Positions 2,847 to 38,680 of a stretch of DNA of 64,000 nucleotides are shown here, in pieces. The notes under the pieces are model-generated. The model had not been told where the DNA came from. It saw only the letters and a list, made by a program, of their open reading frames with translations, and did not search any database. The position numbers were made by a program, and so were the translations under genes. The stretch's first letter is position 1, and every line of letters begins with the position of its first letter. This stretch comes from a bacterium. GTDB taxonomy: Bacteria > Patescibacteriota > Minisyncoccia > Phycocordibacterales > Phycocordibacteraceae. Where the stretch lies: contig JBBCGK010000001.1 in NCBI GenBank assembly GCA_037200965.1, positions 352,001 through 416,000 on the forward strand. Direction: 5' to 3'.

Positions 2847-3383
2847 TTACGAGCCCGCGGCCAGCTGGCAAATCGTCCCGTCGCCGCCGACAGTCGAGGC
2901 CGTCGCGCCCCGCGCGCACGACTGGCTCGCGCCCGAAAGGATCCAGCTTATCTGGTAGGCGCGGCAGACAGAGCCTGTCACTTGTGTACAATTATAGGCA
3001 AATCCCAGCCACACAAGACTGCCGCCAAAGGTGACTTTGGGCCCGGCCGGAAGCCCCGGTATATAGGGCCTCAGCGCATCATCAAGCGCGGCGCTCTGCG
3101 TCGTCGGCGCAATATCCGTCCTTCCGCACTGGCCGCTCGGATAGGTCCCGAGGCAATGCGCGACCGTATCGCCCGGATACGGATACGAGCCCTGGTCCGT
3201 GAAATAGAGATTGATCGCATTTATATATTGCGTGATTTCCTGATTAGCGGAGGAATTCGTTCCTTTCGTGCGCGCGGAATTGAGCGCGACGAGCACGACT
3301 GCCGAGAGGATGCCGATAATGGCGATCACGACAAGGAGCTCGATAAGGGTAAAGCCGCGGGAACGAGAAGAAGGGATGATCAT
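2847..3383 (-). CDS. type IV pilin-like protein (prepilin with N-terminal cleavage/methylation motif)
   Basis: ATG at 3383 gives MIIPSSRSRG|FTLIELLVVIAIIGILSAVVLVALNSAR, the class III signal/pilin motif (G|FTLIELL). The ORF track extends further upstream on alternative starts; the internal ATG is preferred because it places the motif 10 aa from the N-terminus. C-terminal Cys pairs are present. Confidence 0.8.
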   Translation of the reverse strand: MIIPSSRSRGFTLIELLVVIAIIGILSAVVLVALNSARTKGTNSSANQEITQYINAINLYFTDQGSYPYPGDTVAHCLGTYPSGQCGRTDIAPTTQSAALDDALRPYIPGLPAGPKVTFGGSLVWLGFAYNCTQVTGSVCRAYQISWILSGASQSCARGATASTVGGDGTICQLAAGS

Positions 3384-3414
3384 GAAAAAAGTATACCGTG
3401 GTGCGGGTAGATAT

Positions 3415-4779
3415 CTATGAATTATCCGCAAGGAAGTCGATGTCCTGCTGGTATTTCGCGGCCTTTGCCACGACCGAGGCGCCATAGGCCGAAATCGCGC
3501 CGCCGGAGCACGCGCCGCCGGAATAGTAGCGGCAGGCAGCGTTTTGCTCGGCCGTATAGGTGCCGCCTGCGGCGCCCACGTCCTGGAGATAGAGCGCGGT
3601 CGCCATGATGGCGTGCTCGGCATTCCAGGGGTTCGTCGCAGGCACCCCGAGCGCCGCCTCGATGCGCCCCTCGAAGAGTTCCCAGGTCGACGGGATGAAC
3701 TGCGTCGGACCCATCGCGCCGCCGTACCCGCCCGGTTGCGGACACGAGACCGGTGTCGTCCGCCAGTCTTTCCCGAGGGCCGCCGTGATGCGGGCGAACG
3801 GCACGGTGTCGCGGGGCGCCTTCATGACGCCCGAGAACGGCGTCCCGGTGTTCTTCCCTTTCCCGTCCCCGGTCGTAAGGTCAGTCACAAGACAGTTCCC
3901 CACATTCGTCCCGAGCGCGGACTCCTGCGAGAGGATGGCGAGGATCATGGCGGCGCGCACCCCTGTCTTCGCCGCCGCCGTCTTCGCATAGACGACCGCG
4001 TCGCCAAACGGAATGGCGCCCGTATCCCTAAGCGGGAAAAGCGCGGCGCGTATCGCCGCGGCCTTCGCCTGCTTTGCGGCGAGCACCTCCTGGTACTGCG
4101 CTTCCTGATTCGTCGTTATCGCAAGGAGCTGCTGCTGCTCGGCTTCCTTGACCGCGATCTGCTGCTTGGTCGTCTCGACCGCGTACTTCGCGTCCTGCGT
4201 CGCGTTCTGCTTCTTTGCGAGCGCCTCGCGCTCGGCCTGCGTCTGCGCCTTCGTCACCTTGATATCGGAAAAGAGCGCCTGCATCTCGCGCTTTATGGAG
4301 ACGAACGCATCCACGTCCGCGAAGAAGGAAGAGATGTCCTCGTTTGCAAACGCGATCTCGGCAAGCGAGGAGTCGTCAAGCTGGCTCTCCTGCCGGAGCA
4401 TCCCCGCCAAAGACTCCTTTCCCGCTTCGATGCGGTTCGCGAGCGTGGTGATGGTCTTATTCTTCGAGGCTATCTCGCTCCCGAGCTGCTTGATGGTCAC
4501 CGTCTTTGCAGCAATCTGCGCCTGGGCCGCCTTGATCTGCGCGTCGAGCTGCGTGACGTTTCCCTTGAGCGTATTTTTCTTCGCCTGCGTCTCCGTGACT
4601 ATCTTCTGCTGCGCAGCAATCTCCACCTGAAGCTGGTCGTACTGCTTCTGGAGCTCGGCGCGCTCGGCGGGGGTAAGCTCCTGCGCAAGCGTCTGCGGCA
4701 CCCCTGCGCCGGAAACGGCAAGGAGCACTACCGGCAGCAGAAAAAGGGCGATAACAAAAAACACCGGGCTGCGTTTCAT
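3415..4779 (-). CDS. secreted coiled-coil protein with C-terminal SLT/MltB-like lytic transglycosylase domain
   Basis: Signal peptide from ATG 4779 (MKRSPVFFVIALFLLPVVLLAVSGAG). A long Q/A/K/E-rich heptad region (about 250 aa) follows. The C-terminal domain has an ES catalytic-type motif (LAILSQESALG) and MGPTQFIPSTW, as in lytic murein transglycosylases. The track start at 4812 is TTG. Confidence 0.7.
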   Translation of the reverse strand: MKRSPVFFVIALFLLPVVLLAVSGAGVPQTLAQELTPAERAELQKQYDQLQVEIAAQQKIVTETQAKKNTLKGNVTQLDAQIKAAQAQIAAKTVTIKQLGSEIASKNKTITTLANRIEAGKESLAGMLRQESQLDDSSLAEIAFANEDISSFFADVDAFVSIKREMQALFSDIKVTKAQTQAEREALAKKQNATQDAKYAVETTKQQIAVKEAEQQQLLAITTNQEAQYQEVLAAKQAKAAAIRAALFPLRDTGAIPFGDAVVYAKTAAAKTGVRAAMILAILSQESALGTNVGNCLVTDLTTGDGKGKNTGTPFSGVMKAPRDTVPFARITAALGKDWRTTPVSCPQPGGYGGAMGPTQFIPSTWELFEGRIEAALGVPATNPWNAEHAIMATALYLQDVGAAGGTYTAEQNAACRYYSGGACSGGAISAYGASVVAKAAKYQQDIDFLADNS

Positions 4780-12454: not shown

Positions 12455-12485
12455 ATGAGGAATGGTATCACGGACGGTCTCCGGC

Positions 12486-15400
12486 TTAGGGCGCCGGTTC
12501 CGCTTCCGGACCAGGCGCGGGAGGCTCTTCCGGCGCCGGGCTTACGGGCGGCGCGATGACCGTAACGGCGCGCGAAGCGTGCGCTTCGTTTCCTGCCGCG
12601 TCCGCAACACGGTACGTGACCGTATAGCTTCCGGGTGTCGCGGTATCGACTGCGCCGTCTTTCGTGATGTCCGGCGTAAGGTCGCCGTCGCGATCGTCGG
12701 ACGCGCTTGCGCCCGGATCTTCCCAGACGGCCCCTTGAGCGAGATGCGTCTCGGCATCGCCCGCGAGCGTTATCACGGGCGCCAGCGTGTCGGGAGACGA
12801 CGCGCCCGCACCGCCATTGTTTCCTGTCGGAGGCGGCGGGATATCGGTTTCCGGGGTCCAATTCGCCGGGGAGGAGTCCCCCGCTTCGTCCTCTTCGCTT
12901 ATGACGGCAGCCGCGGTCGAGGTCGCGACCTGCCCTTTCGTCCCGACGATGAAGTAATCAAATGACACGTCGCTTTGCTGGGCTTTCTCGAGGCGTATGC
13001 GGAACGAGCCGTTCTTCTTGTCCGCGAGATACCATCCGCCGTTTACGGCTCCGGTAAAGGTCACGAATATTTTGTCCGACGGCGCGGCATACACGTTTTC
13101 GATTTCGACGGCCGTATTGCCCGCGAGGATCATGCCGGATCCCGCGGAGGAATTCCCCGCCGAATCCGCGGCCGCGACGAACCGGTCGGCAACGAGGGTG
13201 CCGAACTGCGCGATTCCCTCCCGGACGAACGCGCCGAAACCTTCGAGCGCCGACGCGAGCGTCGACGAGGCGAAAGTACCCGGAGCCGCATCCATGCCGA
13301 TCGAGCCGTCCTCGAGCCGTGCGATGCGGTCTTCGAGCGAATCCATGCGTGCGCCGATAGCCAGAAGCTCGGCGGAAATCGACTGCAGGCTTCCGAGGCT
13401 GTAGGTGGCGAGCTTGTACAGGTCGATGCCCGACGCGTCTTCCGTAAGCACCACTGACGGCAGGCTGGTGCTCGCGAAACCAAGGTTTGCCGCGACGGAC
13501 GCGAAGGATCCGGCCGGAAGCGCGAAGCCGTCGGCATATACCGTGCCCGAGATTCCGATATCGCCCGAGACAGAAAGCGCCCGGTTTGTCGCTCCGGTCC
13601 TGATGCCGATGTTCCCCGCCGCGTCGACGGCGAGCGCCGGGACGGTCGAGCTTGCGGCAGCGTTTCTGATAAAGCCGGTGCGTGCGTTGAGCGCGTTCAC
13701 CGCGGAAATAAGCGGCGAGACAAGTCCCGCGTAATTCACGGTGTAGTAGGTGCCGGTCACGCCGTTCAATTGCGTCTCAACGGTCCCGGTGAGCTGCGGG
13801 AACGCCTTCGCCACGTCCTGCGCGATGATGCCCACCTGCTGACCCTGGCTGAGCAACGGATCGCGCCAGTTATACGTTACGCCGCTTATGAGCGAGAGCT
13901 TCGAGAGCGCCTCTTCGCCCGTGATCGCCTCGATATTCTTCTTGAGGCGGGAGTCCGACGTACACGCCCCCGAACCGTTGATGACGCACGTACCGCCAGG
14001 ACCGCTGAATGTCGCGTTCCCGGCGTTGTCGACCTTGAAGAGCGTGGTCGTCGCGCTCGCGGTCGAAGAGCCGATGGCGAAGAGATTGTTGCCCGGATAG
14101 AGAGCGCCGTTGTTCGCATGCACCGCAAGGAGCGCGCCGGGCGTCGACGAGGCGATGCCGACTTTCCCGGCAAAGTAGTTCGTGTAGGCGTCGGCCTGAT
14201 AAATGGCGTAATTTCCGGAAGGAGCCGTGGCCGTGCCGAGCAGGAGTTCCGTGTTGTTCGTGCCGTTCGCAAGGCTCTCGACGTTGACGCCGATCGAGTT
14301 GGTGAGCGTGCCTGCGCCTATCGACGTATTTCGCTGCCAGAAGCCGCGGAAGTTCGTTATGAGGTTCCCGGTGTCTACCGAAGGGGCTTCGGAATGATAG
14401 TTGGAAGCATTGGTGGAAGTGGCGAGCGTGCCACTAACGGCGTTCTGGATCGTAAGACCGCTCATCTGATTCACTCCATAGCCGACGGAGGTATTTGAAA
14501 CGGTGATCCGGTTTCGGAGACCGCCGCCTTGCGCTCCGCCGGATACGTTATTGGCCAAGCCCGACCATACTACTTGCGTGTTAAGTCCTTGTATAGTTGC
14601 TGTCGCAGGTGTACTCGAGGCGTTCACCACCACAAAGAGACCGCGCATATTGATGTTTGCGCTCGTTGTTCCGACGAAGAGTGTGTCATTTGTGCCGGGC
14701 GCCGTGCCTTTCACGTTCGAAGTGCCGATGACCGAGTATGTGACAGCGCCACCATTGTCCGCATAGAGATTGCCGTGTACCTCGAGAGAGTTCGCGGGAG
14801 ACGTGGTGCCGATGCCGACATTGCCGTTCGCGAGTACCGTCATGAACGTACTTGTCGCCGTGCCGGCCGTCGTGGAAGCGATGGTAAACAGCGGGGTATT
14901 GGCCGGAGTGGAGACGGAGTTCGAGATGGAGAGGAGCGAATAGGGCGAAGTGGTACCGATGCCGACATTGCCCTGTACCAGGAGTCCGTTCGTCGGCGGC
15001 GCGATGCCGTAGCCGATATCGATGCCCGTGCCGCCAAGCATATGCAGGTTCCCGAGCGCGGATACTTGAAGCGCGGTCGTGGACGCAGTGGCCGTGGTGC
15101 TGCTTGCGATAACGAACAGCGGGATCGTACCGCCGCTTGCGCCGTTAACCGAAAGCCGCGCGAACGGACTCGTGCTGCCGATGGCGAAGTTGTTCGTCGC
15201 CACGTCGGCACGGGCTATCTCAACGTTGCTTTTGCCGTAAAGCTGGATGCTGTTTCCGTTCGAAGCATCAACCAAAAGTCGCAAAACACCACTCGAGGAG
15301 GAATTGGAGATGCCGAAGACGCTGTTGCTCGATCCGACCCATCGCGCATATGCCGTGCCGGAAGTGCCGTCGGTGCGTATAAAGTCTATGCCGTTGCTGT

Positions 15401-18400
15401 TGTTCCCCTGCTTCCCGACCTGGATGCTCCCGGCAACGCTTAAAATCGGCGAGCCCACTTGCGTGGTATAGGGAGCAGTCGTCGTACCGATCATCGTAAA
15501 GCCGCCTCCCGTTGCAAGATAGGTATTGCCCGTCGAAGTAAATTGCGTTGAAGATGCGTTAGCGCTGAATTGTTGTAGTCCGGTCCATGTATTGGGGTTC
15601 GCGACATTGAGCGAGGCGATGACCGCGCCGGTCGTCGGGGTGATAGTGAGCGTGCCGTCGACGTTCGAAACGGAAGTGACGCCGGTCGAGGAGGTCAGAT
15701 AGTCGGTGCCGGGCACCGCGTTTACGATATATCCGCCCGTTGACGCCTTCAGAATGCCCGAGTTGCCGGTGATGGCGAGATTGGGTATCGAGATCGGGCC
15801 CGCGAAGGTCGAAGTCGCCGACGTCGTGGCGATAAAGAACCCGGCGGTCGCGGAGTTACCAAGAAGCGACGCGCCTTCGATCGAAAGGCGCGCGCCGGGC
15901 GTACTCGTCCCCACCCCCACATTCCCGTTCAATATCGTCCTGGCAATGCCCGTGTTTCCGAGCGTGGCGGAGTTCGAGCCGTTGCCGACGGCGTTGTACC
16001 CGATGACGATCTCGTTCGCGCCGCCGGCGGCAAGCGGGAACGCGCCGTAGCCGAGGTAGGTGGAGTCGCTTGCGGTCTGGTTGGGGGTCGTCCCGTCGGC
16101 GATAAATCGGCCGGCTCCCATGCCGATGGCGGTGTTGTGGAATCCGCTGACGTTGGTCTGGAGCGCCGCGAGCCCGACGGCGGTGTTGTAGTAGCCGGTG
16201 GTGGTGAGGGCGAGCGCGCCCGCGCCGATCGCGGTGTTGTCGAGGCCGCTCGTGTTTGAGAACAGCGCGGAGTATCCGACCGCGGTGTTCGAGTCGCCTC
16301 CGGAATTGGCGGCAAGGGCGTTGGTGCCGATTCCCACGTTCCTGATCGCGGCAAAGAGGTGCCCCGGCAGGATGTTAGCCGGCGCCGCGGCGAGCGCACC
16401 CTGGCCGATGGCGATGTTGTCCGTAATGGTCGAGGTGGCGGACATCCACGCGGCGGCGGAAGACGCGCCAAGCGCGAGCGAGCTGTTCGTCGTGCTCGCG
16501 TAGAGGACGGTGTTCCCCGCCTGCTTGTATCCCGAATACTGGTCGGTGTTGACGAAGCCGGCGACGTCGAGCGGATAGGAGGGCGAGGCGTTCCCGATCC
16601 CGAGCCGCTTGTTCGTCTCATCCCAGAAGAAGTTCCGGGGGGCGGCGGACTGGGTGAGCTTCGTGCCGTCGGAGAAGACAACGCCGCCGTTGTAGAAGGT
16701 GGTGGTGCCGGTGCCGCCGTTTGGCACCGTGAGCATGCTGGCGAGGTTGAGGGTGTTTGCGGTGAGGGTGGTGCCGTCGAAGGTGAGGTTCGCGGAGTCG
16801 GTGAGGAGGCCCGCGGTGGTGGTATAGGGGACGCGGTTGGTCGTGAGATAGGTGTTGTACAGGCCGGAGGCGACGGAAAGCTGGGTGGTGGAGGCGTTGG
16901 GGAAAACGGAGGCGGTGGTGGTGGTCGAAGTAAAATAGGCGGCGACGGCCTGGCCGGCGACGGAGAGTTTCGCATAGGGGGAGGTGGTGCCGATGCCGAC
17001 GTTCCCGGCGTTCGTCACGTTAAGGAACATGGTCGAGGTGGTACCGAACCGGTTGGTCGAGGACGCGACCGCGAGGATAAAGGGCGTTATGGATCCGAAC
17101 GGATTCTGGACCGCGAGATTCGCGAAGGGGGTGGTGGTGCCGATGCCGACATTGCCTTCGGTGTAGTAGATGCTTTTGGTGGAGGTGGCGGAGTGCTGGA
17201 AGAAGGTCATCGCGCCGCCCGTGACGACGTTGGTCGCGGCGATGCGGCCCATGATCTGGTTGCCGTTCTGGTTGTAGTGGCCGAGGTCGTCCTCGATGTA
17301 GTTGAGGGAGGGATAATCGAGGTCGCTCGCGAAGACGATCCGCGTGTTGAAGTCGTTCGCGGCGACGTCTTCCTGCGCCGCGCGGACCTGCGACTGGCCG
17401 AGGTCGGACATGGTGAGGAGCGTGCCCGACCGGAAGATGTAGAACGGCATGTTCGCGCCGAAGCGGGCGCGATAGTTGGCGATCATGGTCTTGAGCGCGG
17501 CTTCGTAGCTTGCCTGGGAGACGCCCGGGGTGTTGTCGTTGATCGCCACGCCGTCCGTTCCTCCCTGGCCCCACAAGACGCCCTTGAACACCGGTGTATA
17601 GCCGGCCTGCCGGAAGGCGCCAAGCGCCGCGGTGGTGGTGCCGACGGACCCGCTGAAGAACTCTCCGGTCGTGTCCCAGGTGCCTTTGCAGTTGCCGTAG
17701 CAGGCTGCGGCGACCTGGGACGTCGAGCCGCGCGCGCCGTTGACGAACGCGACCCGGCGGCCGGTGGCGCGATAGTAGGTGAGGGCGAAGGATGCCCAGG
17801 CGCCGTCGTCGTTTGAGGTCCCGGCAAGGGAATCTTCGTTGAGAATCTGTCCGTGCCAGTACTGCATGACCTGGCCCAGGGGCGCGACGGGGGCGGTCTC
17901 GGCGTCCCCGGGGCCGAGCATGTTCGACTGCCCCGCGACGAGGAACACATCGACCTGGTTCCCGAGGCCGAGGTTGAACCAGCCGTCCGTGATGGGATTG
18001 CCGGCTGCGGTCGTGGTGCCGATGCCGGCTTTCGCATAGAGGTATGTGCCGTCGAAGGCGAAGGTGCCGGGGCTTGCGGGGGTGGTGGTGGGGGTGGAAC
18101 CAAGAGCAAGGAAACCGCCCACGGACAGCGTTGCGGATGGCGTGGTGCTGCCGATACCGAGCCTGCCATTAGCGTTATCCCAGAAGAGCGCCGACGAGGA
18201 TGTATTGGGCGCTTGCGTCAATTTCGTACCGTCGCTGAAGACGACACCCCCGTTATAAAAGGTGGTAGTGCCGGTGCCGCCAAAAGCTGCCGAAAGGGTC
18301 GAGGTCGCGGACACAAGACCATTGATAGCCTGAAGCGGACCCGTGAGCGAACCAATGGTAAGCGATGGCGTCGTGACGGTGCCGGTCGCGGAGATGGTGG

Positions 18401-21400
18401 TGGTGCCGGTCGCGCCGACCGCGAGCGTGTTTGCGGAGAAGTTGGTGGTGGATGCGTTTTGGATATTGAACTGGCTTGGAATGGAAAGCGTGATGTCGCC
18501 GGTTGAAGCGGAAGCGGTGATTTGATTCGGAGTGCCCGTTAGTGAAAGGACTCCGTTGTTGCTGATCGTCACGGCGCCGGTCGCGCCCGAAAGCCCGATG
18601 CCGAGATTCCCTTGCAAAAGCGACGTGACGCCGGTGTTGGTGATGGTAAGCCCGCTTCCGATGACCGACTGCCCTGCCGTGACCGAGATGCCGGTACCGT
18701 TTGAGACCGTGCCGGTCGCAACGTTCGCAAAGGTATTCGGTCCCGAGAAGTACGGTATGTTCCCAACCACTGCCGGGGTGGAAGTCGAAAGGCCGTTGAA
18801 GCTTATGGTATTGATCAAACGAACGAGCGGCCACGCAAAGGCAAGAGGCACTTCTGGCGTTGCGCCGGAAGAGGCCGCAGTGATGAGACCCTTTCCGTTC
18901 ACTGTGATGCTGGCGTTTGTAAAGGAGCCGACGTTGGCATTCACCGTCGCGAGCGTCGCGGCTGCGGAGCCCGGGCCGCTTGCAGTGACGTCCCCGGTGA
19001 GCGCGGTAATGTAATTCCCTGCCGCCTGCTTTCCGTTGAACGTACTCCAGTCGGTCGATGAGAGGAGCCCGCGATTGCTTGCGGATGCGGTCGGAAGATT
19101 GAAGGTGACCGTATTGCCCGAACCCGTGATCGAGAAGTCGGTTCCGCTCGTTGACGAGGCGAGCGTGAGTGCGCCGGTGATCGCGGAACCGAACTGCGGC
19201 GTGACCGAGGTGATGCCGCTCGCGGAGGTGAGATAGTCGGTTCCCGCAACCGCAGGGACCACATAGCCTCCTGCGCCGGTCTTGAGAAGATTCCCCGAGG
19301 CGATGTTGGTGATGGCGAGGTTGAGAGTCGAGAGCGGGCCTGCGAACGTACTGGTTGCGCTGGTCGTCGCGAGAAAGAACCCGGCACTCGCGAAATTGCC
19401 AAGAAGCGATGCCCCCTCGACGGCAAGGCGCGCGCCCGGGGTCGTCGTGCCGATCCCCACATTCCCCGTATTTTTGATTACCAGCCGCTGAACCGGCGTT
19501 GCCGATCCGTCCGGGGTCGTGAAGAATGAGAGGCGTCCCGGAGCGTCGCCGCCGGTAGCCGTTGCCGCGTCCGCTTCCGCAAGTATCTGCGCGTAGAGCT
19601 GCGACGAACCCGTGCTGTCGACGCCATAGAAGGCAACGGTGCCCAGATCGTCGTTATTGCTTATCTCCGTGCCGGAACCGCGGTATTTCTGGAAGCTTTG
19701 GACCGGACCCGAACTGTTTGCCGCCTGATAATAGAGGCTCTGCATGCTGCTATTTGTCGTCGAATACAGGCGCTGCAGGTATCCGCCCGCACCGACCGTG
19801 CCGGAACTGCCGACGGTCATATCGCCGACAACCGCGAGCGTCGCGGCGGGAACGACGGTGCCGATGCCGACGCTCCCGCCAAGAGTCGCGAAATACGCGC
19901 TTGAAGTTGCCGTCAGCTGCGACGTGGAGGCGTTGCCGAAGAATTGCTGGAGCTGCGACCAGTTATTCGCGGTAGTCGTGCCAAACGCAAGCGACACATT
20001 GTTCACCAAACGGACGAGAGGATAGGAGAACGTAAGCGGGTTTTCGAAATCGGTGCCGGGAGCGGCGTTCGTTATGTATCCTCCGGCCGATGCCTTGAGA
20101 AGACCTGAGTTCCCGGTAATCGCGAGGTTCGGTATAGAAAGCGGGCCGGCAAAGGTGGAAGTCGCGGAGGTGGTTGCGACGAAGAAGCCGGCAGTGGCCG
20201 AATTGCCGAGGAGCGACGCGCCCTCGACGGAAAGCCTCGCCCCCGGACTCGTCGTACCGATGCCGATGTTCCCTCCCGATACCGCAGAGCCGGTGCCGGT
20301 CACGCCGGTGCCGTAGATGAGGTTGCCGATGTTGAGCTGTCCCGAGAGCGTCGCGGACGGGAGCGAGATGTTGGTGCCGATGAGGATGTTCTGGCTGCCG
20401 GTGGTGAGGTTCGCGACGGCGGTCGAGGAGGTGGCGGCGCCGATGAGGATGTTGCCGGCGCCGGTCGTGACGTTGTACCCGGCCTGGGAGCCGAGGAAGG
20501 TGTTGAAGTCGGAGGCGTCGCCCAGGGAGTGGCCCGTGCGATAGCCGATATAGACGCCGTTCCTGTTGTTGAAGGAGCTGCCGGTATCAAGGACGAGGTT
20601 GCCGTTGCCGGCTTCGTACCCGATCGCGACGTTGCCGCCTATGGTCGACGAGGCGAATTCGAGGGCGGCCTTGCCGATCGCGACGTTGTTCGGGCTGTAG
20701 TAGCTCGAATAGAGGGCGCCGTCGCCGACGGAGACGTTCGAGCTGCCGCTGATGTTGTTCCACATGCTCTTGTACCCGACGGCGGTGTTGTAGAAGCCGT
20801 TGGCGGTGAAGCGGAGCGCCTTGTACCCGACGGCGGTGTTCTCCTCGCCGGTGTTTGCGGCGCCCGAGACCGTCGTGGTGCCGCCAAGCGCGTAGTATCC
20901 GAAGGCGGCGTTGTACGAGCCGGTGGTGTATTCGCGCATGGCGCCCTCGCCCGCGGCGGTGTTGTACGAGCCGGCGGTGTTGGACAGGAGGGTTTGATAG
21001 CCGAGGGCGGTGTTGTAGAAGCCGTTGTTGTTCGCGTTGAGGGCGTACCGGCCGAAGGCGGTGCTGCGGACGTCGCTTGCGGTTGTGGTCGCGTCGCCCC
21101 CGGCATTGAGGCCGAAGATGGTGGTTTCATTCGTCGTCGACGCATACCCAAGCAGGCGGTTGGCGATTTTGTATCCCGAGTATTGATCCGTATTGATGAA
21201 GCCGGCGACATCAAGGGGATTCGTGGGCGACACCGTATTGATGCCAAGCCTTCCGGCCCCGTTATTCCAGAAGAGGGCGCTTGCGGAGGTGTTGGGTGCC
21301 TGCGTGAGCTTCGTGCCGTCGGAGAAGACAACGCCGCCATTGTAGAAGGTGGTGGTCGCGGTGCCGCCGGAGGAAAGAGGCAGGGCGTTCGTAAGAGCAA

Positions 21401-24400
21401 GCGTGTTTGCGGTAAGCGTGGTGCCATTAAAGGTGAGGTTCGCGGAGTCGGTCAGAAGGCCGTTGGTTGTCGTGTATGGGACGCGGTTCGTGGTGAGATA
21501 GGTGTTGTACAGGCCGGAGGCGACGGAGGCGAGCGTGGTCGAGGCGTTCGGGAAAGTGGAGGCAATCGTGGTAGTGGCGGTGAAGAAGCCTGCGATCGCT
21601 TGGTTTCCAAGCGACGAGGAACCTTCGACGGAGAGGCGGTAGGCGGGAGTGGTGGAAGCTATACCGACGAAACCGGAGTTCATAATGACGAGTGCGCGCG
21701 TGCCGCTGCCGCCGGATGTCGCACCGTTGACATCGAACTCAAAACCAGGAACTACCGCGCTGGTATCTTGGTTCGTGAAATAGAATACTTTGGAACCGAA
21801 TCCTTGAATCTGATGCGCGCTGCCGTTCGACTGGTTGATGGAGATATACTGGCCCGGGGCTGCATTGCGAGTGACGCGCAAACCTTCGTTTGCCGCAGTT
21901 GCGTTGATGTCAAGCGGGGCGCTTGGCGTAAAGGTGCGAATACCTACGTATCCGTTGCCGTTCGCGCTGCCGACATACAGCGACGGAGTCGAGCTTCCGG
22001 CGGCGCCGACGACGAATGCGGGAGTCGTGGACCCCATGCCGACCGAGAGCTGAGCGAATGGCGAGGAAGTGCCGATGCCGGCATTGCCTTGTACCAACAA
22101 CCCGCTCACGGGAGGCGCAATACCGTAGCCGATGTCTATGCCGGCGCCCGCGAGCATATGCAGATTCCCAAGAGAGCTAACAACGAGCGCGGTCGAGGTG
22201 GCAAAACCCGCGGTCGAGGTCGAGAGAGCGAAGACGGGAGTTGTGCCGCCTGCGGTACCCGCAAGGGAGAGTTTCGCGTACGGAGAGGTAGTGCCGATGC
22301 CGAGTCTGCTGTTCGTCTTATCGAAGTAGAGTCCTCCCTGAGCGGATGCCTGCGAGAGTGTGCCGAGACCGGAGTCGTAGAACGTGACGCCGCCGTTGTA
22401 GAAGGTGGTGGTGCCGGTGCCGCCGCGGTCGACGGTGAGCGTGCCGGTGGTGTCGGAAAGTACGATGCCAAGCGAAGACGTGGCGGCAGCCGCGAGCGCG
22501 CCGTTGTTCCCGTATATAATCCCCGAAAGCGTTCCGAGGACCGGGTTGTTCGTAAACGTTTGTGTGCCGCCCCAGGTATTGCTTGTCGTGGTGCCAAATG
22601 CAAGCGATACGTTGTTCGTCAAGCGGACCAGCGGGTACGAGAATGTAAGAGGATTTTCGAAATCGGTGCCGGGGACTGCATGCTGGAAGTAACCGCCAGC
22701 GCCGACCTTCACGAGGCCGCTTGCCAAGTCGGTGACGGCAAGATTGAGCGTCGAGAGGGGCCCCGCGAAGGTCGAAGTCGCGCTCGTGGTCGCGATGAAG
22801 AAGCCGGCAGTCGCGTAATTGCCGAGCAGTGAGTGGCCTTCGACGGAGAGGCGCGCGCCGGGCGTCGTCGTCCCGATGCCCACATTGTTATTGAAATATG
22901 ATTTGCCGTGCACCTCGAAGATGCTCACGAGCGAGGAAGTCGCACTGTCGCCAATGATGACAACATCTGACGTGTCGGTTGGATAGATCGCGAGACTGTC
23001 CGACGTGGTCGCCCATGCGCCCGCCCCGCCCCCTCCTCCAGTCGTCTGGTCGACTCCCCACTGCGGCAATCCGCCGCCCGACACCTTAAGCACCTGGCCG
23101 GAAACACCGAGGGGCAGTGCCGTGAGATCGCCATTGCCGTCGGCATAAAGCAGGTCGCCCGGGTTGTATGACGCGATGCCTGTGCCGCCGTTTGCCTGGC
23201 CGAGCACGTTGGTTACGTCCGGGCTTCCAAGATCGACAGAGCCGGTTGAAAGAACGCCGGCGGTCGCGCGCAGGATACCGGTCAGCGCAGTATTTACAGT
23301 ACCCAGATTCGCGAGGGTCGTTATGTTCGGGAGCGTCGTGGTCGCGGTAAGCCGGTTATCGAAGAGCGTATTACTCCAATACTTGTTGACGGATCCTTGC
23401 GCTAGGGCATCGGTCGTCGTGGCGCTGAAGAAGTTGTAAAAGGGTACGCCGAAATTAGTAAGGTGGGTGGCGTCGAGATAGTAGCTTCCCTCCTGCCCGT
23501 CAAACGTGCCGGTCCAGTTGCCGGAGGCATCGGCAACGTAGTCGGTGCCAGGAACGGCATTTGCTACATAGCCGCCGGCTGCTGCCTTGAGAAGGCCGTT
23601 GTTCCCGGTAATCGCAAGCTGCGAAACGGAAAGCGGACCGGCGAAGGTAGAGGTCGCGCTCGTAGTGGCGGTGTAGTAATCGGCGACGACTTGGCCGGCG
23701 ACGGACAGTTTGGCGTACGGCGATGTGGTGCCGATACCGACATTTCCTCCGGTTGTCGCAAGATAGGTATTGCCGGTAGAGGTGAACTGCGTCGAGCTTG
23801 CGCCTGCATTGAACTGCTGGAGCGCAGTCCAGGTGTTGGGGTTCGCGAGGTTGATTCCGAGATTCCCGCCGGAAACCTGGAGCGTCGCATCATTATTTAA
23901 CGAAAGTGCGTATGGCGATGAGCCGAGGACGACCGGATCGGATGAGGAGAACGACAAAGCGCCGGAAGTGGTGATCGTTGTGGTCGCTGCGCTTGAAAGC
24001 GCGCCATTGTTTCCATATACAAGGCCTGAAAGCGCGCCGAGGATCGGACTATTCGTAAAGGTTTGTGTGCCGCCCCAGGTATTGCTCGTCGTGGTACCGA
24101 AGGCAAGCGACACATTGTTCGCCGAACGCACGAGCGGATAGGAAAACGTGAGCGGGTTTTCGAAGTCGGTGCCCGGTACTGCAACGGAAAGGACGCCCGC
24201 CGCGGCTTTCAAAACTCCCGTGAGTGAGGTCGACACGGTACCGAGGTTCGCGAGGGTCGTGATGTTCGGGAGCGTCGTGGTCGCGGTAAGCCGGTTATCG
24301 AAGAGCGTATTACTCCAGTATTTGTTAGTGGCACCTTCGGCAAGCGCGTCGGTCGTGGTCGCATGGAAGTAGGTGTAGAAAGAGGCGTCGAAAGAAGAGG

Positions 24401-26999
24401 CGTCGAATTTGGCGTTAAGCGCATTTTGCAGATCAGTCTGATCCGAGAGAATCCCGGTAATGCTCCCCCACACCGCACTGTTGATGCCAAGCGACGAGGT
24501 CGCGACATATTCCCAATTCCCGTTCGCATCGGAAAACAAGAGCTTGTTGGCGGTCGGAACGGTCGAGGTACCGGTGCCCCCGCGGTTGATAGCGAGCGTT
24601 CCGGTCGTATCGGAAAGCGCGATGCCAAGCGACGAGGTCGCAAGCGCGGCCGGAACGGCGCTTCCTCCCGTTTGGTTTGCGAGGACCGAGTTTGCCGCGA
24701 TCGGCGCGAGGCCGATCTGCACGTTCGTGCCGCCGACTTGGTATCCGAGCGCGCCAGACGAGACGGCAAGACCGTTCGTGACGCCAAGCGTCGAAGTTGC
24801 CGCCGTCGCGAGCGTGCCGTTATTACCGTAGACGAGACCGGAGAGGGCGCCAAGGATGGGAGCATTGGTGAACGTCTGGACAGGGCCCCAGGTATTCGCG
24901 GTCGTTGTGCCAAATGCGAGCGTGATGTTGTTAACGGCCCGCACGAGCGGATATGCGAAGGTGAGAGGATTCTCGAAATCAACGCCCGGTACCGCCGCCG
25001 AAAGAGCTCCTGCGGTTGCCTTTAAGATTCCTGTAAGCGACGTCTTGATCGTACCGAGGTTCGCGAGCGTTGTGATGTTCGGGAGTGTCGTGGTCGCGGA
25101 GAGGCGATTATCAAACCGCGTATTCGTCCAGTACAAATTGTTCGTCCCCTCATCAAGTCCGTCGGTCGTCGTCGCGTACCAATCGGCGAGCGAGAGTTTC
25201 GCATCAAGGGCGCTTTGCAAGTCGGTCTGGTTCGAAAGCGTGCCAATGATGTTCCCCCATGAAGGATTGCCGCCCGCAGCGATCCCGAGCGACGAGGTCG
25301 CGACAAGATCGTACCCGCCCGCGCCGTCGCCAAGAAGGACCTGGCCGTATGCGGGCGCACTCGCGATACCCGTACCTCCGTTGTCTATATCGAGTATGCC
25401 GCTCAGCGTGAGCGTACCGCTTGAAGTGACCGGACCGCCGGCAAATGAGAATCCGGTCGTTCCACCGGAAGCGTCGACGGAAGTTACCGACCCCGAACCT
25501 CCCCCCGATTGCACGACGGTTGTACCGCCCCCGCGCGCCCCGCTTCGCACCGCGGAGTCGATGTTCTGGTACAGCAACGCTCGCAAACCGCCGATCGCGG
25601 CGTCCACATAGGCAATTGATGCGCCGCCTTCCGGAGCAATGTATTGATTCGTCACGTACGTGGGACCTGTCTGATGGATGACCAGGGGAACATCTACCGC
25701 CCCCGTGCTTGTCGCGCTTGTAACGACATTTCCGGATGACACATAGGCGACTTGAGGCAGAATAACGGTGGGCGGGGTCAGAATATAAGCGATTGTTTCC
25801 GCTGTCCGATCAAAGAGGCTGCGGATAGTCTCGTAGGTAAAAAGCGCAATGTATTCTGGCTCCGTAAGCGGCGCGCCAGCATACGCGGCCGCGGGGAGGG
25901 CCTGCTCGCTCCCGGAAGCTCCAAAGACCCGGGGAATGAAGGATTCGATACGCATCGAAGCTCCGGTATCAAAAGCGAGTGCGGTATTTTTTGCTCCGAT
26001 CATCCGCTCGCCAATCGCGACTTCCTTTTTCGCTACATACGCAACTACGCGGGGAGACGCGTCGCTCCAAGCGTAGAGCGATCGCTCATAAGCGCCGAGA
26101 AGCGCGGGCAGCGCATTGCCGGTTCGCATGCCCAACATGTCTCCAAGCGCGTACACCGAACGGAAAATCGCGCGCGGTATTTCAAGTGCCGCGGTCAGAG
26201 ATGCGGGAGTGGAAGTTCGATCCGAAACGGACAGGCGCGGAGAAAAGTTCCCTTTCGTTTCTTCCGCAAACGCTTCCGGCGGCGTCCACTCCAATGCAAC
26301 GCTTGTCCACGGCGAATCTTGCGCTGGCACAATTTGCATCTGAGTCTCCCGTGCGGCGATCGTCGCGTTCGTAAGCGGAAGTAACGCTCCGTGTGCAAGG
26401 TCGTCGGTCGACTGCGCGATCGACTCTTTGAGCGCAACGCGCGTCGCGGACGTGCGGCTCTCCGTTTCAAGCGCATGCCTTGCGATCGAGGCGATGGTGG
26501 CGGCGCTCGCTGAGCGTACGACACCCGCGGATTCCGTTACCATCGCGAGAGAATGATCTGCAATCGATCCAAGAACATCGGCACGAGCAAGTGCCGCGCC
26601 GCCCGCCACTATCGCAACGGCAACCGCGAGGGAAACGGCATGGCCTGAAAATGCATATGAAAAGTATGGAGCTGGTACTGCCCGTGGCGCTTTTGACGCT
26701 GCTTCGGAGCTTGCGGGTACCGCGTCGGGTGTTGTCGGCGAAGCCGGCTTTTTTACAAACTCCGCATACTCCTTTCCGCGCGACTCAGCCAACGCGCGAG
26801 CGCGGGCCGCATTGCGGTCGGCTTGGATTTTTATAAAACGTTCAAGCGATGAACGCTCAACGAGCCACGTGCGCCCAACTCGCACTCCATCGATAGACTT
26901 TCCTTTGCAGAGTCTCGCAATATAGTCAGGACTATATCCGGATAAATCAGCGGCGACTTTCGTCGATATCAAGTTTTCTTTAAGGAGGTAAGGATCCAT
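12486..26999 (-). CDS. giant membrane-anchored surface protein (4837 aa): cytoplasmic HTH + TM + tail-fibre/YadA-like repeats + SGNH esterase + peptidase-S74 chaperone domain + DUF5011-like Ig domain
   Basis: Uninterrupted 14.5-kb ORF with an ATG at 26999. Residues 10-57 match the excisionase/MerR HTH_17 pattern, followed by a K/R-rich linker and one hydrophobic helix (FSGHAVSLAVAVAIVAGGAALA). The remainder is Gly/Thr/Ser/Ala-rich with many recurring modules (GIGTTSPYAKLSV..., ...FENPLTFSYPLVR..., NTAVGY-type head repeats). Defined domains are listed separately. Confidence 0.85.
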   Translation of the reverse strand: MDPYLLKENLISTKVAADLSGYSPDYIARLCKGKSIDGVRVGRTWLVERSSLERFIKIQADRNAARARALAESRGKEYAEFVKKPASPTTPDAVPASSEAASKAPRAVPAPYFSYAFSGHAVSLAVAVAIVAGGAALARADVLGSIADHSLAMVTESAGVVRSASAATIASIARHALETESRTSATRVALKESIAQSTDDLAHGALLPLTNATIAARETQMQIVPAQDSPWTSVALEWTPPEAFAEETKGNFSPRLSVSDRTSTPASLTAALEIPRAIFRSVYALGDMLGMRTGNALPALLGAYERSLYAWSDASPRVVAYVAKKEVAIGERMIGAKNTALAFDTGASMRIESFIPRVFGASGSEQALPAAAYAGAPLTEPEYIALFTYETIRSLFDRTAETIAYILTPPTVILPQVAYVSSGNVVTSATSTGAVDVPLVIHQTGPTYVTNQYIAPEGGASIAYVDAAIGGLRALLYQNIDSAVRSGARGGGTTVVQSGGGSGSVTSVDASGGTTGFSFAGGPVTSSGTLTLSGILDIDNGGTGIASAPAYGQVLLGDGAGGYDLVATSSLGIAAGGNPSWGNIIGTLSNQTDLQSALDAKLSLADWYATTTDGLDEGTNNLYWTNTRFDNRLSATTTLPNITTLANLGTIKTSLTGILKATAGALSAAVPGVDFENPLTFAYPLVRAVNNITLAFGTTTANTWGPVQTFTNAPILGALSGLVYGNNGTLATAATSTLGVTNGLAVSSGALGYQVGGTNVQIGLAPIAANSVLANQTGGSAVPAALATSSLGIALSDTTGTLAINRGGTGTSTVPTANKLLFSDANGNWEYVATSSLGINSAVWGSITGILSDQTDLQNALNAKFDASSFDASFYTYFHATTTDALAEGATNKYWSNTLFDNRLTATTTLPNITTLANLGTVSTSLTGVLKAAAGVLSVAVPGTDFENPLTFSYPLVRSANNVSLAFGTTTSNTWGGTQTFTNSPILGALSGLVYGNNGALSSAATTTITTSGALSFSSSDPVVLGSSPYALSLNNDATLQVSGGNLGINLANPNTWTALQQFNAGASSTQFTSTGNTYLATTGGNVGIGTTSPYAKLSVAGQVVADYYTATTSATSTFAGPLSVSQLAITGNNGLLKAAAGGYVANAVPGTDYVADASGNWTGTFDGQEGSYYLDATHLTNFGVPFYNFFSATTTDALAQGSVNKYWSNTLFDNRLTATTTLPNITTLANLGTVNTALTGILRATAGVLSTGSVDLGSPDVTNVLGQANGGTGIASYNPGDLLYADGNGDLTALPLGVSGQVLKVSGGGLPQWGVDQTTGGGGGAGAWATTSDSLAIYPTDTSDVVIIGDSATSSLVSIFEVHGKSYFNNNVGIGTTTPGARLSVEGHSLLGNYATAGFFIATTSATSTFAGPLSTLNLAVTDLASGLVKVGAGGYFQHAVPGTDFENPLTFSYPLVRLTNNVSLAFGTTTSNTWGGTQTFTNNPVLGTLSGIIYGNNGALAAAATSSLGIVLSDTTGTLTVDRGGTGTTTFYNGGVTFYDSGLGTLSQASAQGGLYFDKTNSRLGIGTTSPYAKLSLAGTAGGTTPVFALSTSTAGFATSTALVVSSLGNLHMLAGAGIDIGYGIAPPVSGLLVQGNAGIGTSSPFAQLSVGMGSTTPAFVVGAAGSSTPSLYVGSANGNGYVGIRTFTPSAPLDINATAANEGLRVTRNAAPGQYISINQSNGSAHQIQGFGSKVFYFTNQDTSAVVPGFEFDVNGATSGGSGTRALVIMNSGFVGIASTTPAYRLSVEGSSSLGNQAIAGFFTATTTIASTFPNASTTLASVASGLYNTYLTTNRVPYTTTNGLLTDSANLTFNGTTLTANTLALTNALPLSSGGTATTTFYNGGVVFSDGTKLTQAPNTSASALFWNNGAGRLGINTVSPTNPLDVAGFINTDQYSGYKIANRLLGYASTTNETTIFGLNAGGDATTTASDVRSTAFGRYALNANNNGFYNTALGYQTLLSNTAGSYNTAAGEGAMREYTTGSYNAAFGYYALGGTTTVSGAANTGEENTAVGYKALRFTANGFYNTAVGYKSMWNNISGSSNVSVGDGALYSSYYSPNNVAIGKAALEFASSTIGGNVAIGYEAGNGNLVLDTGSSFNNRNGVYIGYRTGHSLGDASDFNTFLGSQAGYNVTTGAGNILIGAATSSTAVANLTTGSQNILIGTNISLPSATLSGQLNIGNLIYGTGVTGTGSAVSGGNIGIGTTSPGARLSVEGASLLGNSATAGFFVATTSATSTFAGPLSIPNLAITGNSGLLKASAGGYITNAAPGTDFENPLTFSYPLVRLVNNVSLAFGTTTANNWSQLQQFFGNASTSQLTATSSAYFATLGGSVGIGTVVPAATLAVVGDMTVGSSGTVGAGGYLQRLYSTTNSSMQSLYYQAANSSGPVQSFQKYRGSGTEISNNDDLGTVAFYGVDSTGSSQLYAQILAEADAATATGGDAPGRLSFFTTPDGSATPVQRLVIKNTGNVGIGTTTPGARLAVEGASLLGNFASAGFFLATTSATSTFAGPLSTLNLAITNIASGNLLKTGAGGYVVPAVAGTDYLTSASGITSVTPQFGSAITGALTLASSTSGTDFSITGSGNTVTFNLPTASASNRGLLSSTDWSTFNGKQAAGNYITALTGDVTASGPGSAAATLATVNANVGSFTNASITVNGKGLITAASSGATPEVPLAFAWPLVRLINTISFNGLSTSTPAVVGNIPYFSGPNTFANVATGTVSNGTGISVTAGQSVIGSGLTITNTGVTSLLQGNLGIGLSGATGAVTISNNGVLSLTGTPNQITASASTGDITLSIPSQFNIQNASTTNFSANTLAVGATGTTTISATGTVTTPSLTIGSLTGPLQAINGLVSATSTLSAAFGGTGTTTFYNGGVVFSDGTKLTQAPNTSSSALFWDNANGRLGIGSTTPSATLSVGGFLALGSTPTTTPASPGTFAFDGTYLYAKAGIGTTTAAGNPITDGWFNLGLGNQVDVFLVAGQSNMLGPGDAETAPVAPLGQVMQYWHGQILNEDSLAGTSNDDGAWASFALTYYRATGRRVAFVNGARGSTSQVAAACYGNCKGTWDTTGEFFSGSVGTTTAALGAFRQAGYTPVFKGVLWGQGGTDGVAINDNTPGVSQASYEAALKTMIANYRARFGANMPFYIFRSGTLLTMSDLGQSQVRAAQEDVAANDFNTRIVFASDLDYPSLNYIEDDLGHYNQNGNQIMGRIAATNVVTGGAMTFFQHSATSTKSIYYTEGNVGIGTTTPFANLAVQNPFGSITPFILAVASSTNRFGTTSTMFLNVTNAGNVGIGTTSPYAKLSVAGQAVAAYFTSTTTTASVFPNASTTQLSVASGLYNTYLTTNRVPYTTTAGLLTDSANLTFDGTTLTANTLNLASMLTVPNGGTGTTTFYNGGVVFSDGTKLTQSAAPRNFFWDETNKRLGIGNASPSYPLDVAGFVNTDQYSGYKQAGNTVLYASTTNSSLALGASSAAAWMSATSTITDNIAIGQGALAAAPANILPGHLFAAIRNVGIGTNALAANSGGDSNTAVGYSALFSNTSGLDNTAIGAGALALTTTGYYNTAVGLAALQTNVSGFHNTAIGMGAGRFIADGTTPNQTASDSTYLGYGAFPLAAGGANEIVIGYNAVGNGSNSATLGNTGIARTILNGNVGVGTSTPGARLSIEGASLLGNSATAGFFIATTSATSTFAGPISIPNLAITGNSGILKASTGGYIVNAVPGTDYLTSSTGVTSVSNVDGTLTITPTTGAVIASLNVANPNTWTGLQQFSANASSTQFTSTGNTYLATGGGFTMIGTTTAPYTTQVGSPILSVAGSIQVGKQGNNSNGIDFIRTDGTSGTAYARWVGSSNSVFGISNSSSSGVLRLLVDASNGNSIQLYGKSNVEIARADVATNNFAIGSTSPFARLSVNGASGGTIPLFVIASSTTATASTTALQVSALGNLHMLGGTGIDIGYGIAPPTNGLLVQGNVGIGTTSPYSLLSISNSVSTPANTPLFTIASTTAGTATSTFMTVLANGNVGIGTTSPANSLEVHGNLYADNGGAVTYSVIGTSNVKGTAPGTNDTLFVGTTSANINMRGLFVVVNASSTPATATIQGLNTQVVWSGLANNVSGGAQGGGLRNRITVSNTSVGYGVNQMSGLTIQNAVSGTLATSTNASNYHSEAPSVDTGNLITNFRGFWQRNTSIGAGTLTNSIGVNVESLANGTNNTELLLGTATAPSGNYAIYQADAYTNYFAGKVGIASSTPGALLAVHANNGALYPGNNLFAIGSSTASATTTLFKVDNAGNATFSGPGGTCVINGSGACTSDSRLKKNIEAITGEEALSKLSLISGVTYNWRDPLLSQGQQVGIIAQDVAKAFPQLTGTVETQLNGVTGTYYTVNYAGLVSPLISAVNALNARTGFIRNAAASSTVPALAVDAAGNIGIRTGATNRALSVSGDIGISGTVYADGFALPAGSFASVAANLGFASTSLPSVVLTEDASGIDLYKLATYSLGSLQSISAELLAIGARMDSLEDRIARLEDGSIGMDAAPGTFASSTLASALEGFGAFVREGIAQFGTLVADRFVAAADSAGNSSAGSGMILAGNTAVEIENVYAAPSDKIFVTFTGAVNGGWYLADKKNGSFRIRLEKAQQSDVSFDYFIVGTKGQVATSTAAAVISEEDEAGDSSPANWTPETDIPPPPTGNNGGAGASSPDTLAPVITLAGDAETHLAQGAVWEDPGASASDDRDGDLTPDITKDGAVDTATPGSYTVTYRVADAAGNEAHASRAVTVIAPPVSPAPEEPPAPGPEAEPAP
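12550..12810 (-). other. C-terminal DUF5011/Ig-like domain followed by a Pro-rich tail
   Basis: LAPVITLAGDAETHLAQGAVWEDPGASASDDRDGDLTPDITKDGAVDTATPGSYTVTYRVADAAGNEAHASRAVTV resembles DUF5011-type bacterial Ig-like domains. Ends ...APPVSPAPEEPPAPGPEAEPAP. Confidence 0.5.
13680..13995 (-). other. peptidase S74 intramolecular-chaperone (auto-processing) domain of the giant protein
   Basis: CTSDSRLKKNIEAITGEEALSKLSLISGVTYNWRD...QQVGIIAQDVAKAFPQLT...YTVNYAGLVSPLISAVNALNAR matches the SDxRLKxNI...GfIAQ...Y..L consensus of phage tail-spike/endosialidase chaperone domains. Confidence 0.7.
17223..17954 (-). other. embedded SGNH-hydrolase / sialate-O-acetylesterase (SASA)-like domain in the giant protein
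   Basis: FLVAGQSNMLGPGD (GQSNM nucleophile block I), VLWGQGGTDG (block III-like) and DDLGHY (DxxH catalytic block V), in the order and spacing of SASA/CE-family esterases. Confidence 0.65.
26820..26999 (-). other. N-terminal excisionase/MerR-type helix-turn-helix module of the giant protein
   Basis: LISTKVAADLSGYSPDYIARLCKGKSIDGVRVGRTWLVERSSLERFI fits the HTH_17 pattern (helix, GYS turn, recognition helix, then the wing GVRVGRxW). Homologous to the N-terminus of the 27330-28169 product. Confidence 0.6.
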
Positions 27000-27329
27000 G
27001 TCGGATAACCGAATTAACTACAGTTTATATGGACTTTCCGGAATAAACTCCAAATTGTATGTGGATAAGGAAAATAAGGTTTTCTGAATTACCGTATCCG
27101 CAATCACTAACAAAATGGTCGGGGCAAGTTGACGATAAATTGAGCACGCGAAGCATGGTTGGTATGAAAATTGTACCGACTTCTGCAACGAAAATTGCGT
27201 ATTTTAGAGGCCGAAAAAAATATAACCTTCGCCTACAGCGTAGTTTTGTAAGTTTTCTGCAATTAAATCACCTTAAACAACCGCATCAAACCAGTAATGC
27301 AACCTCGCTTATACGAGATATAATACCCT
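27000..27329. promoter_or_regulatory. 330-bp AT-rich (about 37% GC) non-coding region immediately upstream of the giant gene
   Basis: No ORF of 60 aa or more. Composition contrasts sharply with flanking 60-65% GC coding DNA. Likely promoter/regulatory region; individual promoter boxes not resolved. Confidence 0.45.
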
Positions 27330-28169: not shown

Positions 28170-28257
28170 GCACTTAGTATATAGGTATCTCGTCCCGTAT
28201 AGAAGAGGTTGTACACAAGCACCGAAAAAGCTGAAAATCCATCCGAATTTAGAGTCT

Positions 28258-37607: not shown

Positions 37608-37622
37608 ATTGCAAAAACTATA

Positions 37623-38678: not shown

Positions 38679-38680
38679 AG

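Follow-up and report, generated by a model that had tools for sequence, protein, structure and literature searches.

A 64,000-nucleotide stretch of contig JBBCGK010000001.1 (positions 352,001 to 416,000, hereafter called the window) carries on its minus strand an open reading frame (ORF) of 4837 amino acids (aa) in which an SGNH-type esterase domain is combined with a Peptidase_S74 (S74) domain. We interpret this ORF, with a probability of about 0.6, as a chromosomal gene for a giant, membrane-anchored and probably trimeric cell-surface fibre, whose S74 domain would first fold and then cut the chain and whose esterase would act on the surface polysaccharide of a partner cell. In joining the esterase to a self-cleaving folding domain of the phage type on one fibre, this uncultivated, ultrasmall bacterium seems to follow the plan of phage tail spikes, probably as a means of engaging surface sugars on another cell.

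Esterase and S74 domains of the giant protein

From the N- to the C-terminus, the giant protein consists of a helix-turn-helix (HTH)-like domain, a hydrophobic anchor helix, a repetitive fibre, the esterase, a second fibre part, the S74 domain and a C-terminal module (Table 1). A preliminary description, which covered positions 13680-17954 inside the ORF, had recognised both domains by short motifs; all of these were found in the order it had given within the one minus-strand ORF, far beyond chance expectation. A Pfam scan of the whole protein at curated cut-offs gave four matches, three of them above the cut-off. The SASA family PF03629 matched with E = 8.8e-11 (42.3 bits, cut-off 24.8) over profile positions 2-224 of 226, and Peptidase_S74 PF13884 with E = 7.3e-13 (49 bits, cut-off 22) over profile positions 1-56 of 58. 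Both domain assignments were thus borne out, and the predicted folds agreed with them. The stated distance of about 1100 aa between the two domains holds from the end of the esterase to S74, whereas the catalytic serines are 1323 aa apart.

An alignment of the esterase domain with eight homologs (A1) revealed invariant columns in the GQSN block with Ser3025, the predicted nucleophile, in the Trp, Gln and Asp residues of the WxQGExD block, and at His3241, so that the catalytic serine and histidine proposed earlier are retained. Asp at position H-3 was present in the giant protein and in four of the eight homologs, and the GQSN motif occurred in 149 of 157 members of this SASA subfamily. A search with the A1 profile retrieved solved esterases of the SASA/CE6 type, namely 1zmb (E = 1.6e-8), 2apj and NanS (3pt5). 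The AlphaFold2 model of the domain reached a mean predicted local distance difference test score (pLDDT) of 73 and a predicted template modelling score of 0.76, with 98 residues at a pLDDT of at least 90. Foldseek assigned a probability of 1.0 to its matches with 1zmb, 2apj, NanS (3pt5), XAC1771 and mammalian SIAE, among them the entries 7kmm and 8f9q; SGNH domains of the phage tail proteins Pan3, N4, SFP21A and Moo19 followed lower in the list. The predicted structure thus has an SGNH alpha/beta fold.

The S74 profile begins exactly at Ser4348, which we take to form the S74 catalytic dyad with Lys4353, with the cut just before the serine as in endosialidase (endoNF) and MYRF. The motif S-x-x-R/S-x-K was detected by a regular expression in about 45 ortholog ORFs. 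In a model of residues 4330-4837 (mean pLDDT 71), S74 strands followed by a long helix occupied model residues 44-120, and structure comparison matched this region to 3gw6 and 4uw8. The predicted fold is thus that of an intramolecular chaperone auto-processing (ICA) domain with a terminal long helix. Structure comparison was required for this assignment, as phmmer did not retrieve S74 structures with the C-terminal 538 aa. Behind the Pfam match another 434 residues follow, so that the domain does not have the C-terminal position of S74 in phage tail spikes. For the two domains we infer enzyme activity, trimer formation and self-cleavage, and likewise the target glycan.

The part behind S74 begins with a predicted second S74-like unit, which has no Ser/Lys motif and ends in a 37-residue helix (aa ~4527-4563); some relatives have a complete second S74 copy at the same place, with the motif STRSAK. 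It is followed by a beta-sandwich modelled with high confidence (model residues 290-356, pLDDT 94-96), a disordered linker and an Ig-like domain. Columns of this post-S74 module are nearly invariant in alignment A2. The S74 region also has a close counterpart in P0044, a small secreted fibre protein of 556 aa from another genome, which is 77% identical to it there and ends shortly past S74 with a Cys-x-x-x-x-Cys helix; fibre genes may thus swap S74 modules with one another.

The predicted topology, with the anchor helix in the membrane, is suggested by residues 113-128, which gave the highest Kyte-Doolittle windows of the entire protein. Self-BLAST with 200-aa chunks revealed that internally duplicated modules make up residues 528 to ~4087, including a super-repeat of 530 aa (residues 1770-2300, again at 3326-3865). 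Short repeats of the type NTAxGxxAL, which belong to this super-repeat, form two blocks at residues ~1900-2240 and ~3480-3690 (window ~20280-21302 and ~15930-16562); they resemble adhesin head repeats and had no Pfam match. Classification as a trimeric autotransporter adhesin was dismissed: Pfam detected no C-terminal membrane-anchor domain, and the last parts of the protein are an Ig-like domain and a proline-rich tail. An NCBIfam scan of the giant protein added nothing, a phmmer search of PDB sequences with the full-length protein retrieved the Ig-like domain only, and tRNA and Rfam scans of the window gave no matches.

Table 1. Predicted features of the giant ORF, with residue numbers of the protein and nucleotide positions in the window.
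Feature	Residues	Window positions	Strand	Basis or remark
Giant ORF, 4837 aa		12486-26999	minus	
HTH_17-like domain, predicted cytoplasmic	11-56	26832-26969	minus	Pfam, E 1.7e-4, 22.2 bits (below cut-off 27)
Single strongly hydrophobic segment, predicted membrane anchor	~117-139	26583-26651	minus	Kyte-Doolittle
Internally repeated fibre region	528-2970	18090-25418	minus	motifs NVGIGTTSP, PGTDFENPLTF, GGTGTTT
SASA/SGNH carbohydrate O-acetylesterase domain (predicted)	3016-3258	17226-17954	minus	Pfam PF03629
GQSNM	3023-3027	17919-17933	minus	motif
Ser3025 codon, predicted nucleophile	3025	17925-17927	minus	invariant in A1
GQGGTDG	3144-3150		minus	motif
DDLGHY	3237-3242	17274-17291	minus	motif
Asp3238-Leu-Gly-His3241 codons (DxxH block)	3238-3241	17277-17288	minus	His invariant in A1
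Second fibre region	3266-4330	14010-17204	minus	repeat analysis
Peptidase_S74 intramolecular-chaperone domain (predicted)	4348 to ~4449	13653-13958	minus	Pfam match 4348-4403, then long helix
SDSRLKKNI	4348-4356	13932-13958	minus	motif
Ser4348...Lys4353 (SDSRLK), predicted autocleavage site N-terminal to Ser4348	4348-4353	13941-13958	minus	profile position 1 = Ser4348
GIIAQDV	4390-4396		minus	motif
Degenerate second S74-like unit and long helix (coiled coil), predicted	~4493-4563	13311-13523	minus	model residues 164-234
Conserved helix and beta-sandwich module, predicted	~4578-4685	12945-13268	minus	GIAQF...SAG...KIFVTF...DVSFDYF
Bact_surface_Ig-like domain (DUF5011), PF16403	4743-4814	12558-12773	minus	Pfam, E 3.1e-22, 78.8 bits (cut-off 27)

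Conserved locus, C-terminal module and esterase cassette

To judge from its neighbours and relatives, the gene is chromosomal and belongs to a member of the Patescibacteria (class Paceibacteria, Kaiserbacteria-like). One flank carries genes for GAPDH, RpiB, a pilin-like protein, RPE, a split transketolase, PfkB and a class-I aldolase, and the other flank those for a 327-aa protein with an HTH and a transmembrane segment, GatB, Obg, SecA and MurB. With only 31 nt between the stop codon of the giant gene and the start of GAPDH (window 12455-12485), the giant gene may be co-transcribed with the sugar-phosphate genes. The GC content at third codon positions (GC3) of the giant gene was 0.74, and neighbouring genes were similar. 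SecA and GAPDH of this locus are on record from a 960-kb contig of a metagenome-assembled genome, and look-ups of the exact sequence of the giant protein found nothing. PHROGs gave no tail-fibre match for the giant protein at E<=0.001; the only match was phrog_19913, of unknown function, at residues 3-62 (E = 5.6e-4).

When genomes representing individual species were searched with the C-terminal module, 86 stretches were found to encode a relative; 80 loci were kept, with modules 33-48% identical to that of the giant protein. All named organisms among the related loci were Patescibacteria (Paceibacterota, Kaiserbacteria, Parcubacteria, Minisyncoccia and Nomurabacteria, with some automatically labelled as Saccharibacteria). 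This agrees with the earlier proposal of a cellular gene in a candidate phyla radiation (CPR) organism, to which the housekeeping neighbours point as well. In most of the 80 loci the next genes downstream were GAPDH-RpiB, and where 10 kb of upstream sequence was available, GatB, a paralog of the 327-aa protein and an HTH-type N-terminus preceded the fibre. This N-terminus was detected by tblastn in 12 related loci. The shortest ortholog ORF comprised 2181 aa, and the longest exceeded 4000 aa. Six full-length orthologs (2181-3661 aa) had fibre repeats, Ig-like domains and an HTH_17-like N-terminus (6/6, reaching the Pfam cut-off in two with 29.8 and 27.9 bits), and four of the six had S74, while an enzyme domain was found in none of them. 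The hydrophobic helix behind the HTH is known, within this family, from the giant protein. The giant gene is the local member of an orthologous family at the GatB-GAPDH locus of many species, with a common architecture of an HTH_17-like N-terminus, a long repeat fibre, S74, the post-S74 module (S74-like remnant, long helix and beta-sandwich) and Ig-like domains. The family was defined in the present analysis and is not a curated one. The preliminary description had called the extension behind S74 atypical; its long helix and Ig-like domain are indeed there, but the arrangement is atypical only in comparison with phages and is the norm in this patescibacterial family.

The post-S74 module is joined to more than one type of self-processing domain. 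It was preceded by S74 in 16 of 32 proteins that contain it, by an intein splicing domain in 10 and by a Peptidase_G2 chaperone domain in two. In several orthologs the fibre ORF ends, past its S74, with an intein N-half (Q/CVxGDT...TTANHPF), and a separate ORF with the C-terminal module opens with an intein C-half (...VYDIEVEGTHNFVGNGIFAHN/T or ...FAHN/T). Such split loci comprise L002/L082 (3563-8868), L076 (1-11317) and L081 (1-11113), as well as L040, L050, L051, L055, L077, L078 and L083. The halves are separated by two or three unrelated genes; L002 has a PemK toxin gene at this place, together with ORFs of 432 and 174 aa. This arrangement looks like a naturally split intein, that is, a fractured gene, inside a giant surface protein.

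Unlike the rest of this architecture, the esterase appears to be a lineage-specific addition among the loci sampled. With the A1 profile, SASA was absent (E<=1) from the six-frame ORFs of 83 related loci, in a search in which the giant protein itself scored 363 bits. The esterase (residues 2971-3246) was among the few segments of the giant protein without an internal paralog, and the putative acquired cassette, including its flanks, is a single-copy segment of ~420 aa (~2883-3299) between fibre repeats. Its GC3 of 0.908, compared with a gene mean of 0.749 (standard deviation 0.089), is near the top of the range within the gene and provides mild evidence of foreign origin.

Relatives of the cassette occur in long proteins elsewhere. 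A word-indexed search with the esterase domain had returned eight short proteins, suggesting a rare and free-standing enzyme; an exhaustive profile search corrected this view with 11,681 matches at E<=0.001 and 698 clusters at E<=1e-30, often inside long proteins. Five metagenomic proteins of 978-1605 aa combine SASA, fibre repeats and S74 (P0078, P0124, P0068, P0113 and P0141). P0078 was the best BLAST match of the esterase (46% identity), with P0124 and P0068 also near the top. P0124 is collinear with residues 2883-3299 of the giant protein at 41% identity, including an adaptor of ~130 aa that precedes the esterase, and it begins with the same type of HTH followed by a hydrophobic stretch. 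The gene neighbours of P0124 are pilin-like and those of P0078 non-phage, while the fibre and S74 part of P0113 matches tail fibres of cyanophages and pelagiphages. Two other members of the subfamily, P0066 and P0079, are fused to PG_binding_1 peptidoglycan-binding domains, which may hint at cell-wall-associated substrates.

Viral relatives were found as well. Eighteen IMG/VR contigs carry the SASA subfamily (up to 42% identity, ORFs of 340-1485 aa), but a regular-expression check detected the S74 cleavage motif and the fibre repeat motif in none of these 18 ORFs. Relatives in cultured phages were weak (three Vibrio phages, 26-29% identity), and no cultured phage record covered both the esterase and the fibre/S74 parts. 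The preliminary description had stated that phage tail spikes combine the two domains. Proteins with the combination do exist, and viral contigs encode SASA in large ORFs; for this SASA subfamily, however, the phage combination is not demonstrated, because none of the viral ORFs showed the S74 motif in this check, no cultured phage record covers both parts and the context of P0124 and P0078 is non-phage.

Several further features of the locus and the window were observed. The giant gene is preceded by an AT-rich intergenic stretch of ~330 nt (window 26999-27330). The adjacent gene for the 327-aa protein (orf327, window 27330-28313, minus strand) encodes an HTH like that at the N-terminus of the giant protein and a C-terminal hydrophobic helix and had no Pfam match; orthologous loci have conserved a homolog of it, positioned between the fibre gene and GatB. 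In the related loci L002 and L003, large Laminin_G_3 proteins are encoded between the fibre gene and GAPDH. The window contains a second giant ORF of 2669 aa (47547-55556, minus strand) with matches to SpvB, FG-GAP, RHS-repeat and Ig_Rha78A_N, which is Rhs/Tc-type toxin-like. Positions 46000-48000 have a GC content of ~40%, with small low-GC ORFs after the 2669-aa ORF, while the rest of the window has ~60%. Surface and glycan genes at 147-2792 (minus strand), 43514-44797 (minus strand) and 35421-44797 encode an 881-aa CARDB protein, a Laminin_G_3 protein, Wzy_C/TPR, PMT_2 and GT2 proteins, a Polysacc_synt flippase and methyltransferases.

Proposed mechanism and alternative explanations

In the proposed mechanism, the HTH part would stay in the cytoplasm, the hydrophobic helix would serve as membrane anchor and ~4700 aa would extend outward. 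The S74 domain would trimerise and help the preceding fibre to fold in register, as in phage tail spikes and MYRF, and would then cut the chain before Ser4348, thereby freeing a C-terminal piece of ~490 aa or leaving it loosely bound. Three copies of the esterase along the trimer would strip O-acetyl groups off the polysaccharide of the partner (host) cell. This de-acetylation of partner glycans, already suggested in the preliminary description, might allow the fibre to bind, pass through or detach from the glycan layer, like receptor-modifying phage tail spikes.

Some observations weigh against this mechanism. The HTH_17 match of the giant protein is below the Pfam cut-off. In block III of the esterase, the giant protein has WGQGGTD, in which Gly replaces Glu while Trp, Gln and Asp are retained; of 157 subfamily members, 136 have QGExD and just four QGGxD. 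In block II, homologs have TGSAW where the giant protein has DDGAW, with the Gly one column off in A1. Because of these two deviations, the esterase domain could be weakened or capable of binding only. Furthermore, the split intein that appears to join the module to the fibre in some orthologs suggests that the covalent link matters, at least during assembly, and cleavage by S74 would remove the distal Ig-like tip, which fits poorly with a role of this tip in adhesion.

The alternative that survives best is that S74 trimerises without cutting and that the coiled coil, beta-sandwich and Ig-like domain stay in place as a distal adhesive tip. The strong conservation of the post-S74 module and its end in Ig-like domains, which are typical of surface adhesins, agree with such a tip, as do the orthologs that seem to join the module covalently by the split intein and others without a detectable S74 motif. 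However, the giant protein and most S74-bearing orthologs retain both the Ser-Lys pair and the complete N-terminal S74 motif, and in the characterised S74 proteins endosialidase, T5 pb1 and MYRF trimerisation is coupled to cleavage. We therefore regard an uncut fibre as possible but doubtful.

It seems unlikely to us that the esterase domain has little or no catalytic activity and acts on the fibre in the manner of a lectin, by binding carbohydrate. The rare Gly variant and the shifted block II would be explained in this way, and low-confidence parts of the model (residues 36-38 and 69-75, pLDDT below 50) leave room for it. Nevertheless, the domain has preserved its nucleophilic Ser, its His and the H-3 Asp, the QGG variant stands beside intact Ser motifs in four other members, and a purely binding domain would be expected to lose its Ser or His in time.

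Even less probable is an active esterase directed at the cell's own envelope, either its wall and surface polysaccharide or the glycans of the fibre. Such substrates could be provided by the glycan genes of the window (Wzy_C ligase, PMT_2, GT2, GT1, Polysacc_synt flippase, Polysacc_synt_2 dehydratase and SLT_2 transglycosylase), and SGNH esterases of the Ape family are known to remove O-acetyl groups from peptidoglycan. The esterase is separated from the anchor by ~2900 aa, however, which on an extended fibre would place it far from the cell's own wall, and orthologs in other species do without it, which favours an accessory, target-specific role over housekeeping.

A prophage or phage-derived tail fibre or spike that lies on the chromosome and acts on a virion, the origin offered as an alternative in the preliminary description, is very improbable, since the resemblance of P0113 (SASA and S74) to cyanophage and pelagiphage tail fibres over fibre and S74, the viral contigs with related SASA domains and the general association of S74 with phage tail spikes and of NVGIGTTSP-type repeats with tail fibres are opposed by flanks free of phage genes, an ortholog at GatB...GAPDH-RpiB in dozens of patescibacterial species, an N-terminus whose HTH-like domain and hydrophobic anchor helix take the place of a virion-attachment domain, the lack of a PHROG tail-fibre match and a GC3 like that of the neighbouring genes. 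Release of the HTH domain after the model of MYRF was also considered and rejected, because the predicted cut lies ~4200 aa beyond both the HTH and the anchor and would not separate them.

Comparison with known systems

To our knowledge, the way in which most Patescibacteria recognise and attach to their hosts is largely unknown outside the type IV pili of Saccharibacteria, and little is established for Paceibacteria. A conserved giant surface fibre would be a candidate attachment structure whose enzymatic and self-cleaving domain types are well understood in phages. The presence of the esterase in the giant protein and its absence from orthologs suggest a swappable cargo tuned to the surface sugars of the partner, which could help to predict the hosts of uncultivated lineages. 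More tentatively, the fibre may correspond to the receptor-binding protein of a phage but be anchored to the cell and encoded at a fixed locus in Paceibacteria-type CPR bacteria, namely a giant trimeric fibre folded and processed by S74 or, in relatives, by intein or G2 domains, with a conserved cleavable cap, which takes up enzyme cassettes and determines host range. If this were true, fibre and cassette would set which host surface the episymbiont attaches to or breaches. In the literature, as far as our incomplete coverage extends, we found nothing that links S74 domains to Patescibacteria or describes the giant fibre family.

With phage S74 fibres such as the endosialidase of K1F (endoNF) and the L-shaped fibre pb1 of T5, the giant protein shares an S74 domain of the SDxRxK type behind a long stretch of fibre repeats and presumably the mechanism of trimerisation followed by cleavage. 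It differs in its location at a conserved bacterial chromosomal locus, in a length five to ten times that of a typical tail fibre, in an N-terminal hydrophobic anchor helix where phages have a virion-binding domain, and in the residues that continue past S74. Tail spikes with SGNH esterases (G7C gp63.1 type; Moo19 Gp82, the Pan3 tail spike and the N4 tail protein) likewise display the enzyme on a fibre, with a presumed receptor-modifying role. The esterase of the giant protein matched the phage SGNH domains with Foldseek E-values of 5e-6 to 9e-3 at 12-15% identity, and the SASA/CE6-type structures 1zmb, 2apj and NanS ranked above them.

Members of the SASA family itself (PF03629; NanS, SIAE and the CE6-like 1zmb) have the GQSN block, the DxxH block and the predicted fold in common with the giant esterase. 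They are free-standing or small multidomain enzymes, whereas the esterase studied here lies in the middle of a 4837-aa fibre protein; QGE is changed to QGG in it, and nothing points to sialic acid specifically. The smaller metagenomic SASA-fibre-S74 proteins agree with the giant protein in domain order, esterase subfamily (40-46% identity) and the adaptor preceding the esterase. In contrast to the giant protein, they are several times shorter, and only a short Cys-x-x-x-x-Cys helix and an acidic or proline-rich tail follow S74 in place of the beta-sandwich and Ig module; those whose context was examined are not located at the GatB-GAPDH locus.

The ICA domain of MYRF also represents an internal S74 domain in a membrane-anchored protein with a DNA-binding-type domain. 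Cleavage of MYRF releases its N-terminal transcription factor from the membrane, while in the giant protein the HTH and the anchor are not separated by the cut, which therefore cannot release the HTH. The conserved post-S74 module widens the contexts of S74 beyond phage tail spikes and MYRF, and so do the intein-type and G2-type self-processing domains that accompany this module in relatives. The individual parts of the giant protein are known (SASA/SGNH, Peptidase_S74 and DUF5011 Ig-like), and the combination of esterase and S74 on a fibre follows the logic of tail spikes. Set apart from described systems are the cellular, syntenic and anchor-bearing context of a giant protein in Patescibacteria, the conserved module behind S74 and the cassette-like esterase.

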